This document shows, one piece after another, positions 494 to 13,259 of a stretch of 24,260 bases of DNA. The notes below the pieces were generated by a model, which was not told the origin of the DNA, made no database searches, and was given only the letters and a program-made list of their open reading frames with translations. Made by a program: the position numbers and the translations under genes. Position 1 is the first letter of the stretch, and every line of letters begins with the position of its first letter. The stretch comes from Halalkalibacterium halodurans (lineage in GTDB: Bacteria > Bacillota > Bacilli > Bacillales > Bacillaceae_D), in assembly GCF_004376175.1 (NCBI RefSeq), contig NZ_SNUY01000049.1, positions 1 through 24,260 of the forward strand, given 5' to 3'.

Positions 494-2668
494 TTAAATC
501 GATTGGGGTACCTTTTGTTCTTCTGAATAATTGTTGTAGAATGAAGCATAGTAGCCACTTTGATTTAATAGTTCTGTATGGGTTCCTGTTTCAATTATTT
601 TCCCGTCTTCTAAGACAATAATTAAGTCCGCATTCATGATGGTCGTGAGACGGTGGGCAATGACGATTCGGGTACATTTCATGGCTGATAAATATTGGTC
701 AATCTTTGCTTCATTGACGTGATCTAAAGAGCTTGTTGCTTCATCGAGTAATAAAATTTTTGGTTTGTGCACAAGGGCGCGGGCGAGTGCGATCCTTTGC
801 CGCTGGCCACCAGAGATGTTATGCCCCATCTCAGATACAAGTGTCTCATAGTTCATCGGCATGTTCATAATCTCTTCGTGAACTTGAGCGATTTTTGCGG
901 CTTCGATAATGTCCTCCATGCTCGTATCTGGATTATGGAGGGCGATGTTCTCTCGAATTGACTGATTTAATAGTGTGACGTCTTGAGGGACGACACCAAT
1001 TTTTTGCCGTAATGCTCGCTTGTTCAAATCGTTTAAATTGTATCCATCGTAATAAACCTCACCTTTTGTTGGCTCATACAACCCTAGCATGATTTTAGAG
1101 AGGGTGCTTTTGCCAGAGCCTGATTTACCGACGAGGGCAACCTTTGTTCCTGGTGCGACACGTAGCGATACATCTTTCACGACTTCTTGGCCAAATCGAG
1201 AATAACTGAAAGAGACATCTTTCAAGGTAATTTCACCATGGAGGTTATGAAGGGCCTTGCGATTTTCCCCAATATCCTCCTCTTTTGAGTCAAACACATC
1301 TTGAGCTCTTCCTAAGTAAGCATTTGCTAGTATAAAAGAATTGATCGTATGAACGAGAGAACTACTTAACCCGAAAAATTGCGTAGTCACAGAATAAAAG
1401 GCTACCACTGTTCCCATTGTTACTGCTTGGGCTAGGACTTGATGAGATCCAATGTAAAGAACGATGAGCGGCGCGATCACGGTTAAGAATGTCGTTGCCG
1501 TATTTACGTTATTTAAAATATATTCCTTATTCTTGTAAGCTAAGATGAGCTTATTGAATCGATTCTCCCACTTTTGATACATTGTATCTTCCACACCAGC
1601 TGTTTTAATGCCGAATATGCCGTACATCGTCTCAGTTTGAGTTGCCTGAACTTCCGATTGCTTCATAATCTCTTTTTGATTTGCCTCCGAAATTTTTGGC
1701 CGACTAAAATAGATGATTAGGCCATTTACTGTTGCTAGGAGGAAAACGATTAAAGTAAGCAACGGCGAAAACAGCGTCATGTACGCAAGTATGACCACTA
1801 ACATCCCGATGTCCAATATCCCTTTTAACAGCTGATTGGCAAGTAAGTCTCGAATGACACGCAAGCTGCCTGCGCGAAAGAGAATATCTCCAAACGAGCG
1901 TACCTGAAAAAAGTGGTACGGTAAATTTAATAAGTGACGAAAAAACTTGGTCATCATTTCTCGGTCAAGGTGGTTTTGCATAATGACGAGAGCCCTGCCT
2001 TGAATGAAGACAAAGAAAGCTTGAGAAAAAACATAGCAACTAAGCCCAATTAAGAATACTTGAAGCATCTCTCGGCTTTCTGGTAAAAGAATAAAATCAA
2101 TGACAAACTGGACGAGCAATGGATTGGCGAGCGTAAGTAATTGTAACGTAACGGAAACGGCGATGATGAAAAGGAGCAGCTTCGGCTTTTTAACCATGTA
2201 TGTGAGATAAGGTTTCCAAAGGTTTTTCGGCTTCTGATAGTCTGGCTGCCTTTCTGGATTGCATGTCAAAATGTAGCCTGTATATTTTTGCTGCAACTCG
2301 TCCTGCCTGATTTTCAATCTTCCTAAAGCTGGATCAACAATATAATAGTGGTTTTTTGTTACTTTCTCTAAAACAACAAAATGTTTCCCTTCCCAAAAGA
2401 GAATTGCTGGAAGTTGATGCATGTGCAAGTGCTCTGCTGGTGTTTGATAGACTTTTGCCTCAAAACCTAAATGTTTGGCTAGTTGTTTTAAGTGGAGTAA
2501 CGTCGTACCATCACGCCCATTGGCCATTCGTTCTCTTAGGTAGTGGAGTGAAACATGTCCCTTGTAGTATTTGACAATCATCGCCATACAACAAAGGCCG
2601 CACTCTGTTTGTTGAAGCTGTTCAATGAAGGGTACCTTTCTTCTATGTTTGATCTTATTATCTGTCAT
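494..2668 (-). CDS. halT: Bifunctional lantibiotic ABC transporter with an N-terminal C39 leader peptidase domain (LanT/AMS type)
   Basis: The 724-aa ORF has an N-terminal QTECGLCCMAMI motif (catalytic Cys of C39 double-glycine peptidases) followed by six TM segments. It carries Walker A GKSGSGKST, the ABC signature ISGGQRQR and Walker B ILLLDEATS. Its start overlaps the halM2 stop by 11 nt. Confidence 0.95.
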   Translation of the reverse strand: MTDNKIKHRRKVPFIEQLQQTECGLCCMAMIVKYYKGHVSLHYLRERMANGRDGTTLLHLKQLAKHLGFEAKVYQTPAEHLHMHQLPAILFWEGKHFVVLEKVTKNHYYIVDPALGRLKIRQDELQQKYTGYILTCNPERQPDYQKPKNLWKPYLTYMVKKPKLLLFIIAVSVTLQLLTLANPLLVQFVIDFILLPESREMLQVFLIGLSCYVFSQAFFVFIQGRALVIMQNHLDREMMTKFFRHLLNLPYHFFQVRSFGDILFRAGSLRVIRDLLANQLLKGILDIGMLVVILAYMTLFSPLLTLIVFLLATVNGLIIYFSRPKISEANQKEIMKQSEVQATQTETMYGIFGIKTAGVEDTMYQKWENRFNKLILAYKNKEYILNNVNTATTFLTVIAPLIVLYIGSHQVLAQAVTMGTVVAFYSVTTQFFGLSSSLVHTINSFILANAYLGRAQDVFDSKEEDIGENRKALHNLHGEITLKDVSFSYSRFGQEVVKDVSLRVAPGTKVALVGKSGSGKSTLSKIMLGLYEPTKGEVYYDGYNLNDLNKRALRQKIGVVPQDVTLLNQSIRENIALHNPDTSMEDIIEAAKIAQVHEEIMNMPMNYETLVSEMGHNISGGQRQRIALARALVHKPKILLLDEATSSLDHVNEAKIDQYLSAMKCTRIVIAHRLTTIMNADLIIVLEDGKIIETGTHTELLNQSGYYASFYNNYSEEQKVPQSI

Positions 2669-5630
2669 GAATTCTCAACTCTTTTTCGGTTAATGTAGAA
2701 GAGGGAAGCTCCAGTGCTAAAATCGATGGAACGGTAGGGTTAATATGTCGAAGCAATTGATAGCCAATACCTGTGACCCCTAACATCATTCCTTGCAATT
2801 GATCGCTATGATTTAAGCCCAATTTCCAGCCATATGTGTGCGCTTGGTCGATAGAAGAAATCGCTAATTTTCTTGCTAGTTCTTTTGGCTCGGGATTGTT
2901 CGTATACTGGGCATACAACAGTAAAAGGTCTAAATTTCCGAAATCACCGTGACAGAGACTATGATTATGTCCGAACCCGTCTGATATGGTTTTGTTTAAT
3001 GCAGCATTTAATTCTTCGTGAAGAAGTTCGTCATCGTAGAACTGTGCTAGTAAAAGACGGCTGATCCCAATCCCGGGAGCACCATGGCACCAAAAGGTTT
3101 GATAGGCGTTTCCCTTCCTTAAATCCACCCAATTGTTTTCCTGTTTGTTAAATCGGTTCCGTTCATAGACAAGGTACGAGTGCCCTTGTTTCAAAAGCTG
3201 TTCATCATTCGCAACCGTTCCGTAAGTGAGTAAAGCTAACGCAAATCCTGCGGCTCCATGGCTAAGCCCCGTAAGAACCGTATCTGGCTGTTTAGAATCT
3301 AATAGCACTGACAATCGGCTTGCGGTCGTCTTTGCTACCTCAAAAACTCTAGGCTCGTTTGTCAGTTGATAGATTTTTGTCAGCATATAAAGAACTCCAG
3401 ATAAACCACTGACAAAGTCCGGTGTTTCTTCGTGCTGAACACATTCTTCCAAATGCTTCAAGTATTCATGTGCCTTTTGAATGATGTGTGAATCAGACCG
3501 TTGGAGTCCAAGCACCATAAGGCCATAGAACAGTGACCCTAAACCGAAATAAGCAGAAGATGGCATTAGCTCAGGCTTTAGCTGTTTAAACATTCCTTCC
3601 AACAAAGCATCAGCAGCATGCCGGTAGTGTGTTTCTCCTGTTTGTTGAGCAAGTTGATCGAAAAACAAAACAATTCCTAATGTACCATCATAAATCCCTG
3701 GTGTGAGAGGGGAGACGGTTACGGCTTCATTCATTCCAACACTTACACCAATTAAATAAGCGGCATGCCGATCGTCTTCCCAAATGAGTTGCGCTAAAAT
3801 GTCATCTCCTATGGCTTGGGCTTCTCGCAAAAAGTATCCATCTTCTCGGTCAGCAGAAGCAGGTGACATTGGTGTTTTTTCGTGAGAAGGTGTCCAGTCG
3901 CCATTAGTAAGGGTAGCAAGAGAGCTCTTGATATAGCGAATTTGTCTTGCTTCATCTTCACTCCCTAACTGTTGTAGTCGATGGGTGACTCGTTCAATAC
4001 AAGAGGATTGAAAGAGGTCAGCGATGTCTCTTCCATATCCATCCTTAACGATGGTTCCGCCACAAGTAAGGACAAAATAAGGGATATCATGGTTTTCAAG
4101 TTCTGCTATTTCATGTGGCACGATCTTCTTAAATGGAGCCATTAACGAGGTAATGTTCCAGAATGATTCAAACAGCTTATTCCGCCTAGTCGGTTCCTGC
4201 AAATAGTCGGGGTGAGTGCTAGCCTCCAAAAATTTAGCATAAACATGAGTGGCCCGAAACACATGGCGAATTTGACATGATTCAAAAGCGAAGATAGGCC
4301 CGTTGTGGTCCATTAGTTCATCGATTTCGTTGAGAAAGAGTCGATACATTTTCCGAAAACCATCTGTAACATGGGGGATGTAATTCCCGATATTCGCTTC
4401 TTTCCCGTTAACTGTAGGTTTATTTTGGCTAGATTCGGTTACGTAAGGTTGTTCAACTAACTTCATCTCATCCGTTTTTTGATTGACGATAACCCATGTT
4501 TTAATCTTTTCAGATTGAACGCCTTTTCCCCCGCCGACTGCACTTAGATCGATATCAAGTAATTTGCCACTAGCAATTGTAATCGGAAGCATCAAGGTCC
4601 CAAAGACAGATTGTGTTAGCTCCCTAGCAAGAGCAGGAAATGGAAATGCGCTGTCGTAACAATCCAAATCATTGGTGAATAATGTTTCTAAATCAATTAA
4701 CATCGGGTGTTCTCCGCAGGCGATTAAATTGTCTAAATGAAGATCTGTCGCTCCGAAAAGATAAGCGATAGCCAGATATCCTCCGATTCTTGAATAATAG
4801 CGCTCGATCTCATCCTCCGATGTTGCCTCTTGATGTGGGATAAATTCATACCAGCCGTATGTTTGTCGATCAATGGCTATAGGAATGCGTAATGATGGTT
4901 GAAATCCTTTGGAATTAACCCACTCAATAAACTCACCAAATTGTTTATCAATTGACAGGGAACGGGGCTTGTAGACTACTTTTTGGCCAGAGGCAAATGT
5001 AAGGATGGTCACACATTGACCATTTACATGAGTATCCCCGACGCCGAGCTGAAGGTTCGTTAGTCGTAAGTCTTTCTCTTTAAAAAAATCACTCAACAAT
5101 AGGTAGTCTTTCATATAATGCTGAATGATCTTTTTTACAAAATTGATGGTGCGCAACGTCTCATTTACTACAAGTTTACCTAGAATTGGATATATATTAA
5201 ATAAATTTATTGATTTTGAAGTTTTATTAAATTTATGGTTAAAATCCATATAACGTTCGTGTGGTGTTGATCCGTTTAAGCCTACAGTTAATTTATCAAT
5301 GTGCATTTCTGAAATTAACGTACGATGAGTTAAGTGAAAGAGGCGATGGTGAACAGCTGTTAAGGTTGATTGTAGAAGTGATTGCCGTTCTATGAGCGCC
5401 ATGTCCGTTTTGAAAGTCATAAAATAGTCGGACATTGATTGATATGTAAATTGAAGAAAGGGAGTATAGAAAAAAGAAAACAAATCATTTTCTGCATGGA
5501 AGTATTTCTGGATCTCTTCGGTGACAGGGATCGATAAGATGTCATGAAGTTGTTCTAGCCAATCTGTATCGTTGGTGTGCGGAAGTGTTGTTGGTACGCT
5601 AGGATGCTCACTTGTTAGAGGAGTTTTCAT
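2658..5630 (-). CDS. halM2: Class II lanthipeptide synthetase (LanM), paired with the beta precursor
   Basis: This is a 990-aa ORF. The dehydratase/kinase-like motifs are VYKPRS, DLHLDNLI and IDLETLF. The C-terminal LanC-like cyclase motifs are SHGAAG, WCHGAPG and CHGDFG (zinc ligands). The RBS AAGGAGAGAGG lies upstream of the ATG at 5630. Confidence 0.95.
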   Translation of the reverse strand: MKTPLTSEHPSVPTTLPHTNDTDWLEQLHDILSIPVTEEIQKYFHAENDLFSFFYTPFLQFTYQSMSDYFMTFKTDMALIERQSLLQSTLTAVHHRLFHLTHRTLISEMHIDKLTVGLNGSTPHERYMDFNHKFNKTSKSINLFNIYPILGKLVVNETLRTINFVKKIIQHYMKDYLLLSDFFKEKDLRLTNLQLGVGDTHVNGQCVTILTFASGQKVVYKPRSLSIDKQFGEFIEWVNSKGFQPSLRIPIAIDRQTYGWYEFIPHQEATSEDEIERYYSRIGGYLAIAYLFGATDLHLDNLIACGEHPMLIDLETLFTNDLDCYDSAFPFPALARELTQSVFGTLMLPITIASGKLLDIDLSAVGGGKGVQSEKIKTWVIVNQKTDEMKLVEQPYVTESSQNKPTVNGKEANIGNYIPHVTDGFRKMYRLFLNEIDELMDHNGPIFAFESCQIRHVFRATHVYAKFLEASTHPDYLQEPTRRNKLFESFWNITSLMAPFKKIVPHEIAELENHDIPYFVLTCGGTIVKDGYGRDIADLFQSSCIERVTHRLQQLGSEDEARQIRYIKSSLATLTNGDWTPSHEKTPMSPASADREDGYFLREAQAIGDDILAQLIWEDDRHAAYLIGVSVGMNEAVTVSPLTPGIYDGTLGIVLFFDQLAQQTGETHYRHAADALLEGMFKQLKPELMPSSAYFGLGSLFYGLMVLGLQRSDSHIIQKAHEYLKHLEECVQHEETPDFVSGLSGVLYMLTKIYQLTNEPRVFEVAKTTASRLSVLLDSKQPDTVLTGLSHGAAGFALALLTYGTVANDEQLLKQGHSYLVYERNRFNKQENNWVDLRKGNAYQTFWCHGAPGIGISRLLLAQFYDDELLHEELNAALNKTISDGFGHNHSLCHGDFGNLDLLLLYAQYTNNPEPKELARKLAISSIDQAHTYGWKLGLNHSDQLQGMMLGVTGIGYQLLRHINPTVPSILALELPSSTLTEKELRIHDR

Positions 5631-5762: not shown

Positions 5763-5960
5763 TTAGCACTGGCTTGTACACTTTGTAGTTGGGCACAAGG
5801 CTACGGAGACACCAACTGTAGCGCAAGGCCAAGTTGTTTGTGCATGCACATCTCCTGAACCAGCTAGAGACGAAAGTTCCTTCTCGTTCACCTCGTCAAC
5901 GAATTGTAGACCTTGGGCTTTGCGGAATTCAGGATTACGCAAATCTTTTGAATTTACCAT
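5763..5960 (-). CDS. halA2: Two-component lantibiotic beta precursor peptide (haloduracin beta, HalA2), 65 aa
   Basis: The sequence is MVNSKDLRNPEFRKAQGLQFVDEVNEKELSSLAGSGDVHAQTTWPCATVGVSVALCPTTKCTSQC. The ATG at 5960 is preceded by AGGAGG, so the track's 89-aa extension from 6032 is not needed. The leader is of the EL..xxGS double-glycine type. The core is Ser/Thr/Cys-rich with a CPTTKCTSQC tail typical of beta peptides. It matches my memory of HalA2. Confidence 0.95.
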   Translation of the reverse strand: MVNSKDLRNPEFRKAQGLQFVDEVNEKELSSLAGSGDVHAQTTWPCATVGVSVALCPTTKCTSQC

Positions 5961-6152
5961 TAAAATACCTCCTAATATAAAATTTGTCTCTAGAGACAGT
6001 TTAAATGTATCATAGCTTCCTTTAAAATCCAATATAATTTTTGTGATTTTTTTATTATTTTTTAATTTAGGAAAATTTTAAAAAAATATTGTTGACTAAA
6101 TTTCAACAAAGTGGTAGATTTTAAGTGAATTACATGGAAGGAGGTGAAATTA
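5961..6152. promoter_or_regulatory. AT-rich divergent promoter and operator region between halA2 and halA1
   Basis: This is a 192-bp intergenic region between divergent precursor genes. It contains a sigma-A-like promoter for halA1, a 7-7-7 inverted repeat at 6089-6109 and a 14-bp perfect palindrome at 5985-5998. Confidence 0.6.
6092..6120 (+). promoter_or_regulatory. Candidate sigma-A promoter of halA1-halM1
   Basis: TTGACT (6092-6097) is followed by a 17-nt spacer and TAGATT (6115-6120). A TGn extended -10 lies at 6112-6114. The promoter is about 30 nt upstream of the halA1 RBS. Confidence 0.55.
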
Positions 6153-9610: not shown

Positions 9611-9647
9611 CAATGAACATCATTGGGAAGACAGGAGGTTTGTACTA

Positions 9648-9728
9648 ATGGAGTGGAATGTACTAGTTGGCGTAATTATTATTTTTGCAGTGGCAATCGG
9701 TTTGTTTTCAATTAAGAAAAAAAAGTAA
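9648..9728 (+). CDS. Small hydrophobic peptide of 26 aa, with one TM helix and a KKKK tail. Its function is unknown. It is a candidate accessory or immunity peptide.
   Basis: Hand translation gives MEWNVLVGVIIIFAVAIGLFSIKKKK followed by a stop. AGGAGG (9633-9638) lies 9 nt upstream of the ATG. The ORF sits 37 nt after halM1 and before the terminator at 9738-9761, so it is probably co-transcribed. It is below the 60-aa cut-off of the supplied track. Confidence 0.45.
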   Translation: MEWNVLVGVIIIFAVAIGLFSIKKKK

Positions 9729-9737
9729 GAAAGTGGA

Positions 9738-9761
9738 GGGAGGTTCTAGTGAGAGCCTCCC
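9738..9761. terminator. Rho-independent terminator closing the halA1-halM1 small-ORF transcript. It may act in both directions.
   Basis: GGGAGGTTCT pairs with AGAGCCTCCC (10 bp, one G-U pair) around the loop AGTG. ATTTCTTT follows on the plus strand. On the minus strand the hairpin is followed by a T-rich run, the complement of A8 at 9717-9724. Confidence 0.6.
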
Positions 9762-9776
9762 ATTTCTTTATCAAGC

Positions 9777-10070
9777 TTAAAATTTTCGTTGTAAATAAAG
9801 CCAGTAACAAAGCGCACTAATAAGAGTCAAGGAGAACATCGTTGTCGTCAAAGATCGAAATGTTGTATAGGTCATTTCAATCCAACCTGAAATAAGGATC
9901 AAGAACGACAATCCTGCCATGACAAAGAAAAATGAAAAGCGGAACAGACGGTATTGCATCGCCTGTGCTCGTTCATCGTCACCTTCGCGTTTCATTATGA
10001 TCATAAGAACAATAAACACTAAAAAGGTAATGCTGCTGATGGCATTTAAAAAGGGGATCCATGTTTCCAC
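9777..10070 (-). CDS. Small integral membrane protein of 97 aa with about 3 TM segments, translationally coupled to the upstream XRE regulator. It is CylR1-like in size and topology.
   Basis: The GTG start at 10070 lies 2 nt after the regulator's TAA stop. The sequence GAGGAGGAG inside the last codons of the regulator acts as its RBS. Three hydrophobic stretches are visible: ISSITFLVFIVLMII, FSFFFVMAGLSFLILISGWI and MFSLTLISALCYWLYL. Confidence 0.7.
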   Translation of the reverse strand: METWIPFLNAISSITFLVFIVLMIIMKREGDDERAQAMQYRLFRFSFFFVMAGLSFLILISGWIEMTYTTFRSLTTTMFSLTLISALCYWLYLQRKF

Positions 10071-10072
10071 TT

Positions 10073-10297
10073 TTACTCCTCCTCGTCCTGTATGTATTGG
10101 AAAACTTCATGAATATCGGCATTAAGCGCATGTGCGATTTCAAACGCTAACGCCAGTGAAGGGACATATTTATTTTTTTCAATTGAAATGATCGTTTGTC
10201 TTGTAACACCGGCACGTTCGGCCAACTGCTTTTGTGTCATGCTGTTCTCTGCTCGTAAGACGTTAATTCGATTCGAGATCTTCCCCTTTTTCTTCAT
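10073..10297 (-). CDS. XRE/Cro-CI family helix-turn-helix transcriptional regulator of 74 aa, CylR2-like
   Basis: The sequence is MKKKGKISNRINVLRAENSMTQKQLAERAGVTRQTIISIEKNKYVPSLALAFEIAHALNADIHEVFQYIQDEEE, a classic HTH_3 core (Q..LA...GV.RQTI..IE). I chose the ATG at 10297 because GGCGGTGA lies upstream. The track's GTG at 10333 is less likely. Confidence 0.85.
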   Translation of the reverse strand: MKKKGKISNRINVLRAENSMTQKQLAERAGVTRQTIISIEKNKYVPSLALAFEIAHALNADIHEVFQYIQDEEE

Positions 10298-10338
10298 GAA
10301 CTCATCACCGCCCTTCTGATTGTGTAGCCTCACAAATC

Positions 10339-10367
10339 ATACTAAAGAAAAACCTTCTTTGTGTAAA
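10339..10367 (-). promoter_or_regulatory. Candidate promoter of the XRE and membrane-protein bicistron, with an inverted repeat in the spacer
   Basis: The minus strand reads TTTACA (10367-10362), a 17-nt spacer, then TAGTAT (10344-10339). The spacer contains AAAGAA-N5-TTCTTT (10344-10360 on the plus strand). Confidence 0.4.
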
Positions 10368-10542
10368 GTTTATTTTACAGGTTGCTTACTAAAGATAATA
10401 GAACACCTGTTTTAGGATGAAAGATCTTTTTTTGCCATTGCGATTATTGATTTTTTTATATAAAAATGGTATTTTTTTATGATAAAATGAGTGTTATCAA
10501 CGGCTAGTAGGTAATTAATCATAGCGCCATAAGGAGGATGAC

Positions 10543-10914
10543 ATGAGGTATAAGCGGGAAGAAGCGTTTCGGTATGAGTTTCCTACACCGATCATTACGA
10601 CTTTACTCGTCTATGAGGAAGGGGAATTACTCGCGAAAGACGAGCGATGTGAAGTGATCAATATGAGCCTTGGCGGAGCGCGAATTAGAAGCTCCTTAAA
10701 TATAAAAAATCATTCTAGAGTAGAACTTCGATATATGATGGTTCAAAACAACGTCATGCTCATGTTACCTGGAGATATTGTCTGGAAGGAATCTACGTAT
10801 ACACATCAACATTATGGATTAAAGCTCGTCCTTGATGTGGAGGCGGAAGATCGTTTACTAAGGGACTTAAAAGCACGTGCAAAAATTATACAATCTCTTC
10901 CTGATAAGACTTGA
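10543..10914 (+). CDS. PilZ-domain-like protein of 123 aa
   Basis: INMSLGG fits the (D/N)xSxxG PilZ motif. About 30 residues upstream, KREEAFR is only an imperfect RxxxR motif, with one extra residue. The RBS AAGGAGG lies upstream. Confidence 0.5.
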   Translation: MRYKREEAFRYEFPTPIITTLLVYEEGELLAKDERCEVINMSLGGARIRSSLNIKNHSRVELRYMMVQNNVMLMLPGDIVWKESTYTHQHYGLKLVLDVEAEDRLLRDLKARAKIIQSLPDKT

Positions 10915-12434: not shown

Positions 12435-13259
12435 TTAACTGAGCAATGAAAGTACAATCAAGCCAGCGAGCCAACAATAGAGAGCAAAATAGATCAGTTT
12501 CCCGTGTCTCATTATGTTCATAAACCATAGCAATGACACATAGGAGGCGATGAATGAGCCGATAAAAGCAATGGTATAAGGGATCCATAGAGCGGTGAAA
12601 TGTGGATCTTGCACGATGTCGGAAATGGCAAGCACTCCAGAGCCGAGACTGATCGGAATGTACAAGAAAAAGGAAAATCGCAAGGCCGTTTCTTGTCTCC
12701 ATCCCAGTCCCATGGCAGCGACAATAGTGGCGCCAGAGCGACTAATGCCAGGGATGAGAGCAGCTGTCTGTGCTAAGCCGACGAGCAGCGCATCTTTTAA
12801 GGTGATGTCTCCATCTTGTTTTCTTCCATTTAAATGGCGAATGAGCCAAAGAGCCATTCCTGTTATGAGTAAAGCAAATGCAATCACATGAAGCTGCTTT
12901 AATTCTGTTTCAATCCAATCTTTGAACAGCAGCGCGGCGAGGACTGCTGGAACGGTTGCTAACAGGAGATTAAACGAGATCCGGAAATCGCCTTTTCCTT
13001 GCGCATCTTGATACAGTACGTATCGTGCCGATCCTTTGACGAGCTTGAGCAAATCGAACCGATAAATGGCGATGACGGCAAAGAGGGAAGCAAAGTTGAC
13101 CATTACCTCAAAGCTCAGTCCTTCAGTTTCGACGCCAAGAAAATGCTGAAGCAGAACAAGATGCCCGCTTGAGGAAACAGGAATCGGCTCGGTAAAGCCT
13201 TGAAATAGCCCTAATAGTAAATACTTGATTAATAGCCAAAGCTCTTGACTCCACTCCAC
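12435..13259 (-). CDS. uppP: Undecaprenyl-diphosphate phosphatase (BacA/UppP)
   Basis: The two signature motifs are FTEPIPVSSSGHL (E-x-x-P-V-S-S-x-G-H) and PGISRSGATI. The protein is 274 aa with about 8 TM segments and a GTG start. Confidence 0.9.
   Translation of the reverse strand: MEWSQELWLLIKYLLLGLFQGFTEPIPVSSSGHLVLLQHFLGVETEGLSFEVMVNFASLFAVIAIYRFDLLKLVKGSARYVLYQDAQGKGDFRISFNLLLATVPAVLAALLFKDWIETELKQLHVIAFALLITGMALWLIRHLNGRKQDGDITLKDALLVGLAQTAALIPGISRSGATIVAAMGLGWRQETALRFSFFLYIPISLGSGVLAISDIVQDPHFTALWIPYTIAFIGSFIASYVSLLWFMNIMRHGKLIYFALYCWLAGLIVLSLLS

Follow-up and report, generated by a model that had tools for sequence, protein, structure and literature searches.

The window analyzed here, a 24,260-nucleotide (24-kb) stretch of Halalkalibacterium (Bacillus) halodurans DNA, is the locus of the two-peptide lantibiotic haloduracin (hal). 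Adjoining halM1 on the minus strand, and convergent with it, is a two-gene unit that encodes a small helix-turn-helix (HTH) protein of the XRE family followed by a small membrane protein. The initial annotation likened this pair to CylR2 and CylR1, the regulators of the Enterococcus faecalis cytolysin, and the range it gave, 9777-10367, includes the -35 element of the pair's promoter. The two genes and the elements assigned to them are as follows.

10073-10297, minus strand: HTH gene, encoding a 74-residue XRE-family repressor, the equivalent of BH0460, of LanR/LicR type and assigned to the CylR2/LtnR clade (open reading frame, Pfam and homology).
9777-10070, minus strand: membrane-protein gene, encoding 97 residues with three predicted helices, the equivalent of BH0459, assigned to the LanY/LicY family (open reading frame, hydropathy and homology).
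10076-10084, minus strand: ribosome binding site (RBS) of the membrane-protein gene, GAGGAGGAG, inside the Glu codons with which the HTH gene ends (read from the sequence).
10339-10367, minus strand: sigma-A-type promoter of the pair, with -35 TTTACA, a 17-nt spacer and -10 TAGTAT (consensus scan).
10361-10380: candidate operator O1, the palindrome TGTAAAATAAACTTTACA (GTAAA-N6-TTTAC), overlapping the -35 element (weight-matrix hit, core 10/10).
10340-10359: degenerate remnant of a second operator, O2, core 6/10, with its register taken from the 21-bp phasing in orthologues.
10319-10338: degenerate remnant of a third operator, O3, core 1/10, with its register taken in the same way.
9738-9761: likely bidirectional terminator, a GC-rich hairpin with T-rich flanks on either side (terminator scan and sequence).

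Both genes claimed in the initial annotation are present as open reading frames (ORFs). The HTH ORF starts at ATG, is preceded by the RBS-like GGGCGGTGA and gives the same 74-residue protein as the NCBI call (P0002); an alternative in-frame GTG at 10333 would lengthen the product to 86 residues. The membrane-protein ORF begins with GTG at 10070-10068, and the junction reads ...GAG GAG GAG TAA AA GTG, with the TAA at 10075-10073 and the whole junction at 10075-10068. With its RBS lying within the regulator's last codons, this arrangement bears out the tight translational coupling that had been proposed. Three hydrophobic segments are evident in the Kyte-Doolittle profile of the membrane protein, at approximately residues 5-25, 42-62 and 73-93, in agreement with the three transmembrane segments called earlier. 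Helix 1 is followed by the charged loop KREGDDER, and the protein ends in the basic sequence QRKF. Under the positive-inside rule, this charge distribution suggests an N-out/C-in topology in which the loop carrying the DER motif is cytoplasmic. Downstream, the hairpin at 9738-9761 is likely a bidirectional terminator common to the pair and the convergent halM1 unit; as it ends the unit, the unit would hold only the HTH and membrane-protein genes.

The HTH protein matches Pfam HTH_3 (E 6e-14) and is best assigned to a clade that includes CylR2, LtnR of lacticin 3147 and LicR of lichenicidin. Its resemblance to CylR2, which the initial annotation had described as close, was borne out by alignment (45% identity over 62 residues, E 9e-19); the CylR2 sequence given in that annotation agrees with PDB 1UTX, and the CylR2 structures 1UTX/2XIU are the second-best PDB match of the HTH (E 4e-12). 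Identity to LtnR is 41% over 70 residues (E 2e-18) and identity to LicR is 60%, values by which the protein is closer to LicR than to CylR2, and about equally near CylR2 and LtnR. Orthologues located away from lanthipeptide loci are 66-75% identical.

The membrane protein has a narrower set of recognizable relatives. A word-indexed search with the 97-residue protein returned only its own cluster, tblastn against plasmids gave chance matches only, and neither Pfam nor NCBIfam assigned it a family, with recurrent sub-threshold matches to DUF6773 over the DER region only. An exhaustive phmmer search, however, reached (E 1.6e-7) a cluster that includes UniProt Q65DD0 (Q65DD0_BACLD), the "LanY" protein of Bacillus licheniformis. 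Identity to LicY is 32%, and four orthologues align without gaps at 41-43% identity (39-44% across the wider orthologue set). On these comparisons, the protein can be assigned to the LicY ("LanY") family.

A more distant relationship was seen with LtnI, the membrane protein paired with LtnR. No pairwise BLAST similarity to LtnI was detected. When the LanY family was aligned by hhalign with a profile of LtnI and four plasmid homologues, all of them encoded downstream of an HTH gene and three annotated as DUF2178, the two families matched with a probability of 78% (E 1.8e-5) over 81 columns that extend from helix 1 to the C-terminus. The score of this alignment, 33.5, compares with 13-15 for reversed-alignment nulls and with 14.8 +/- 3.9 (maximum 28.7) for a local column-shuffle null that keeps the helix/loop layout, in which 0 of 60 shuffles reached 33.5. 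Common to both families are an Asn before helix 1 and a G-K-x-DER-T motif after it, where CylR1 has KKDER.

The proposal that the membrane protein is the counterpart of CylR1 held only in part. The size, the three helices and the DER motif agree, as CylR1 (read from an E. faecalis plasmid) has 94 residues, three predicted helices and the KKDER sequence. In addition, the hhalign score of 19.0, from an alignment anchored on the DER motif just past helix 1, lies above nulls in which CylR1 was shuffled inside 12-residue blocks (10.3-10.4 +/- 1.4-1.8), with 0 of 60 and 0 of 30 shuffles reaching 19.0. On the other side, the BLASTP comparison is not significant (E 4.9), the LanY profile finds the CylR1 sequence with an HH probability of 5%, and the protein is nearer to LicY and LtnI. 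Neither the protein collection nor the plasmids yielded CylR1 relatives beyond E. faecalis from which a CylR1 profile could be built, and homology to CylR1 is suggestive only.

Phylogenetic footprinting of seven orthologous promoters identified three palindromes of the form GTAAAGT-N2-ACTTTAC in each, with an exact 21-bp spacing. The palindromes are located at about -80, -59 and -38 from the start codon and lie over the promoter itself, with the -35 (TTTACA) within O1 and the -10 (TACAAT) within O2. The promoter layout is the same in H. halodurans, where O1 matches the position of the first of the three orthologue operators. A symmetrised position weight matrix (PWM) built from 20 sites of the seven promoters returned a single strong hit in the window, O1 at 17.8 bits, while the next best site, within halM1, scored 4.3 bits; the exact half-site GTAAAGT likewise occurs only once, and a palindrome scan that allowed variable spacing agreed with the PWM. 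Repression in H. halodurans may be weaker than in the seven orthologues, which keep all three operators.

The same type of operator recurs across the clade. At the lichenicidin locus, the PWM finds three sites with 21-bp phasing before licR only, and at the other loci sites of at least 12 bits are confined to the pairs' own promoters. This operator type also precedes CylR2-clade HTH genes on pXO1 and on plasmids of Listeria grayi and Clostridium estertheticum, and the cyl intergenic region contains the palindrome GTCAAGT-GTC-ACTTGAC just upstream of cylR1. As DNA recognition is conserved across the clade, a missing operator in the hal promoters is meaningful, though in silico only. The hal genes are arranged as follows.

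494-2668, minus strand: halT.
2658-5630, minus strand: halM2.
Ending at 5763, minus strand: halA2.
To 6362, plus strand: halA1.
To 9610, plus strand: halM1.

The likeness to CylR2 and CylR1 drawn in the initial annotation raises the possibility of a quorum-sensing switch of the CylR1/CylR2 type, in which the HTH protein would repress the halA1 and halA2 promoters and the membrane protein would sense mature Hal-alpha or Hal-beta and free the repressor, leading to autoinduction. This arrangement would account for the identity of the HTH to CylR2, for a partner with the size, helices and DER motif of CylR1 and a score above shuffle nulls, and for the palindrome in the cyl region, whose half-site is nearly that of the clade operator. 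It would also sit well with the presence of LanY-family pairs beside two homologous two-peptide clusters, hal and lic, and with the BibR1/R2 analogues of another two-peptide cluster (bioRxiv 10.1101/2024.08.13.607848). The promoter evidence points the other way. In the intergenic region between halA2 and halA1 (6033-6143), the best PWM score is -0.1 bits, as compared to 17.8 bits at the pair's promoter, and falls inside the shuffle range (95th percentile 7.1); with up to three mismatches allowed and spacers of all lengths, no such palindrome is present there, nor is the half-site GTAAAGT. The layout of the locus also differs from that of cyl. The promoter of the cyl regulators overlaps the divergent toxin promoter (PMC3709268), and it is because of this overlap that the toxin genes are controlled; the hal pair is instead divergent from a PilZ-domain gene and has no such promoter arrangement. 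It is convergent with halM1 and lies ~3.9 kb from the hal promoters, set apart from halM1 by an insertion sequence (IS) remnant in strain C-125, and the gene order, HTH then membrane protein, is reversed relative to cylR1-cylR2, as had been noted and was confirmed on the E. faecalis plasmid. Together with the non-significant matches of the membrane protein to CylR1 and the location of the closest orthologous pairs far from any lanthipeptide gene (see below), these features make the quorum-sensing switch unlikely, and the pair is probably not a CylR-type autoinducer of halA1 and halA2.

A separate repeat, TTGTTGA-N7-TCAACAA at 6089-6109, covers part of the likely halA1 promoter, where it overlaps the -35 element TTGACT, and is possibly a site for a different regulator. 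As an alternative operator for the HTH protein it was rejected, as it belongs to another type than GTAAAGT and an equivalent repeat arises in 25% of shuffles of the region.

Each of the nearest HTH relatives is followed, after an intergenic gap of 0-6 nt, by a 97-residue ORF that aligns without gaps to the H. halodurans membrane protein. Such orthologous pairs occur in approximately 10 other Bacillales species, among them Anoxybacillus spp., Bacillus tianshenii, B. songklensis, Geomicrobium sp., Cohnella nanjingensis, Shimazuella alba, Paenibacillus sepulcri, a Bacillus metagenome-assembled genome and a record labelled Bhargavaea massiliensis. By tblastn, no LanM or LanT homologue lies within 8-10 kb of these loci, and at the four for which called genes were listed there is no lanthipeptide family and the neighbours are different at each. 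The finding of orthologous pairs in relatives with this kind of neighbourhood counts against the CylR-like control of the hal genes that had been put forward. Within H. halodurans itself, the HTH gene lies beside hal in every one of the 19 contigs read in which it is present. In the record labelled Bhargavaea massiliensis (locus stretch L018, 9688-10285), the pair scores and operator strings are the same as those of the Anoxybacillus loci, a match that suggests either recent transfer or a mislabelled or contaminated assembly.

CylR2-clade HTH genes with a membrane-protein partner also occur as stand-alone pairs on Firmicute chromosomes and plasmids, where they have no tie to a biosynthetic cluster. 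Like the hal pair, they combine a short XRE repressor with GT[A/C]AAG-N4-CTT[T/G]AC palindromes in their own promoter. Plasmid-borne HTH proteins on pXO1 (L031, 1380-2039), L. grayi pLGUG1 (L033, 1390-2113) and in C. estertheticum (L032, 3880-4969) are 52-57% identical to CylR2; the promoter of each of these genes holds two such palindromes, and a membrane-protein gene follows. The membrane partners of the stand-alone pairs differ, however, in being diverse and uncharacterised, annotated as DUF2178 or as hypothetical, and those tested show no profile similarity to LanY or LtnI. A wider superfamily that would take in the partners from pXO1, L. grayi, C. estertheticum and Priestia was considered and found no support in profile scores. 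None of these proteins matches the LanY or LtnI profiles, even though the L. grayi and C. estertheticum partners carry DER after the first helix. The Priestia megaterium plasmid pFDU301E (L029, 1809-3327) has two XRE and membrane-protein pairs back to back; one partner is an LtnI-like DUF2178 protein, and the other pair has strong GTAAA-N6-TTTAC sites at 2438 and 2484.

This distribution raises the question of whether the pair is a generic autonomous switch, associated with the membrane and responsive to an envelope or membrane cue, that came to lie beside hal through island insertion or chance. Consistent with such an origin, the pair and its triple operator are found in the ~10 Bacillales species without a LanM or LanT gene nearby and with differing neighbours at the four listed loci, and plasmids of non-producers commonly carry a CylR2-clade HTH gene with a membrane-protein gene behind it (pXO1, Listeria, Clostridium, Priestia). 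At the hal locus, the IS remnant at the junction in C-125 fits as well, as does the GC content at third codon positions (GC3) of the pair, 0.44-0.45, which is nearer that of the flanking core genes than that of halM1/halM2 (0.35-0.37), though the genes are short; neither GC nor GC3 decides whether the pair is part of the hal island. The LanY family is small, however, and its members adjoin both the hal and the lic clusters directly, with a remote relative in ltn. Repeated chance adjacency would therefore be unlikely, and the constant position beside hal in all 19 HTH-carrying contigs of H. halodurans argues in the same direction. On balance, we regard the generic switch as possible but rather doubtful.

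In Geomicrobium halophilum (L012, 9992-10291), a LanY-family gene lies downstream of a response-regulator gene without an adjacent HTH gene or operator, and the ratio of nonsynonymous to synonymous substitution rates (dN/dS) is 0.165 as compared to the paired copy in Geomicrobium sp. JCM 19038. The retention of the membrane gene without repressor or operator, at this dN/dS, gives weak support to a function of the membrane protein that is independent of the repressor. Such retention under purifying selection is also hard to square with a toxin, and bears on whether the pair might be a toxin-antitoxin-like or phage-defence module, with an HTH antitoxin or regulator preceding a small membrane-disrupting toxin. 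Although the antitoxin-first, translationally coupled and autoregulated layout fits such a module, and the best NCBIfam match of the HTH protein is a Y4mF/HipB-type antitoxin model, that match scores 41.9 bits, far under the cut-off of 71.65, and neither of the relatives that have been characterised, LtnI and CylR1, is a toxin. With Pfam and NCBIfam as the family collections searched, a toxin-antitoxin role is considered very improbable.

The hal pair is not new to the literature. BH0460/BH0459 were already reported as similar to the lichenicidin genes BLi04122/BLi04121, with BLi04121, a small protein with three transmembrane helices, resembling BH0459 (Dischinger et al. 2009, PMC2727956), and the present comparisons identify them as a pair of the LicR/LicY type. 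The features of a LanR/LanY (LicR/LicY) pair are all found at hal: both homologies, an HTH gene that comes first and is coupled to its partner, and a position beside a cluster with two LanM genes. In B. licheniformis (L019), licR (70 residues) and licY (95 residues) overlap, run in the same HTH-then-membrane order, share the operator type and the 21-bp phasing in their own promoter, and adjoin a homologous alpha/beta two-peptide cluster whose precursors are homologous to HalA1 and HalA2. The two systems differ in what follows. The licR and licY genes lead directly into the ATP-binding cassette (ABC) genes licFGEHI, inside the cluster, whereas the hal pair stands alone as a two-gene unit closed by a terminator and lies at the edge of its cluster, where it converges with halM1.

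The comparison with lacticin 3147 is similar. On plasmid pMRC01 of Lactococcus lactis (L026), the immunity operon has the order ltnR (79-residue HTH), ltnI (116 residues, overlapping ltnR), ltnF and ltnE. As at hal, an HTH gene precedes the gene of a three-helix membrane protein; the LtnI and LanY families have G-K-x-DER after helix 1 in common, and ACTTTAC-type repeats are present in the operon's own promoter. Unlike the hal protein, LtnI has an extra N-terminal segment and homologues annotated as DUF2178, and the ltn operon, which is divergent from ltnA1, runs on into ltnFE, while the hal pair ends at the terminator at 9738-9761. LtnR is cited as a transcriptional repressor of lacticin 3147 immunity (McAuliffe 2001, as cited in PMC4239024, PMC3857288 and PMC7476776), and the immunity system given for lacticin 3147 is LtnFE(I), with functional homologues in B. 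licheniformis and E. faecium (Draper 2009, as cited in the same three articles). In both haloduracin and lacticin 3147, the alpha peptide is mersacidin-like and binds lipid II, and it is paired with an extended beta peptide, while cytolysin is of a different type and is not a mersacidin-type alpha/beta lantibiotic (bioRxiv 10.1101/2024.08.13.607848). The CylR2/CylR1 system, which has no phosphorelay and in which repression needs both proteins and is lifted by a mature lantibiotic subunit, shares with hal the three-helix partner and a similar half-site, GTCAAGT, in the cyl intergenic region. By gene order, coupling and partner similarity, however, the hal pair appears to resemble ltnR-ltnI and licR-licY more than cylR1-cylR2, and LtnR/LtnI would be its nearest characterised analogue.

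Three alpha/beta two-peptide lantibiotic loci (ltn, lic and hal) thus each have an HTH and membrane-protein pair. The reading we favour, at about even confidence, is that the hal pair is a self-contained, autorepressed LanR/LanY module of the LtnR/LtnI type that is linked to self-protection or membrane sensing. In such a module, which would work like ltnR-ltnI and licR-licY, a dimer of the HTH protein would bind the operator and repress its own two-gene operon. The membrane protein would be the regulated output, inserted N-out/C-in with its DER loop in the cytoplasm, and, like its remote relative LtnI, it would help to protect the cell from a two-peptide lantibiotic that binds lipid II. If the analogy with CylR1 holds, it may in addition act back on the repressor when the membrane is challenged. 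On this view, genomes that lack lanthipeptide genes would carry the module in orphan form, for protection or sensing ("immune mimicry").

Several observations weigh against this reading. The link to LtnI is remote, as it depends on an HH probability of 78% from small alignments, and no immunity ABC genes follow the hal pair. As the closest relatives of the pair have no lanthipeptide genes next to them, its role may have nothing to do with lantibiotics. With a single intact operator left of the three in H. halodurans, regulation may be weak or on its way to being lost, and the missing consensus operator at the hal promoters is compatible with weak or indirect control of those promoters. Finally, the putative regulatory genes of lichenicidin were dispensable for production in E. 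coli (PMC10006061), a result that is neutral with respect to immunity.

The junction between the pair and halM1 marks a recombination-prone edge of the cluster. In strain C-125 (BA000004.3; L022, 10522-11537), approximately 850 bp of extra DNA separates the membrane-protein gene from halM1 at the place that corresponds to positions 9611-9776 of the window; it is an IS remnant with a transposase fragment (DDE_Tnp_1_6) and small ORFs, and is missing from the window strain and three other strains. With halT as BH0451, halA2 as BH0453 and halA1 as BH0454, counting on gives the membrane protein as BH0459 and the HTH as BH0460, and the BH0456-BH0460 numbering is explained by the extra ORFs in C-125. 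The hal ABC permease and immunity ABC genes lie past halT, at the opposite end of the cluster from the pair.

Other features near the pair were also recorded. On the plus strand at 9648-9728, a 26-residue ORF encodes the single-helix peptide MEWNVLVGVIIIFAVAIGLFSIKKKK; it has an AGGAGG RBS at 9634-9639, starts 38 nt past the halM1 stop and lies before the common terminator, and a 26-residue gene is found at the matching place in C-125 (L022, 11420-11500). This ORF could encode a small membrane peptide that is co-transcribed with halA1-halM1. On the far side of the pair, the PilZ-domain gene (10543-10914, plus strand; Pfam E 1e-11) diverges from it, with 245 bp of intergenic sequence between the two. 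The promoter-like site of the PilZ-domain gene (10455-10483) lies clear of the operator, and tblastn gave no match to this gene in pair loci outside H. halodurans. Approximately 2.1 kb from the pair, and near the cluster for a lipid II-binding lantibiotic, is an uppP/bacA (undecaprenyl-diphosphate phosphatase) gene (12435-13259, minus strand) that is conserved in all H. halodurans strains seen; it is probably a housekeeping gene.

For H. halodurans, these results caution against annotating BH0460/BH0459 as "haloduracin regulators," as the in silico evidence indicates autoregulation only. For the wider group, they put the hal and lic pairs, LtnR/LtnI and CylR2/CylR1 into one frame, with a common HTH clade, operator half-site and DER-loop partner. 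CylR1 has been described as a signal transducer and LtnI as an immunity protein; how the signal passes from CylR1 to CylR2 is still unknown (PMC3709268), and the spread of the CylR system in other clusters "has not been explored" (van der Donk group 2024, bioRxiv 10.1101/2024.08.13.607848). It is tempting, if only tentatively, to suppose that CylR1, LtnI and LanY/BH0459 are one family of small membrane proteins with a cytoplasmic, juxtamembrane DER loop, partnered with one XRE clade that recognises GT[A/C]AAGT half-sites in its own promoters. If this is true, the membrane protein would sense lantibiotic present in the membrane and titrate the repressor, and the outcome would be set only by the choice of promoters that bear the operator. 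For two-peptide loci, "immunity" and "quorum sensing" would then amount to two read-outs of a single mechanism. The many orphan copies would be lantibiotic-sensing or resistance modules in non-producers, and as agents of "immune mimicry" they may matter for lantibiotic resistance.

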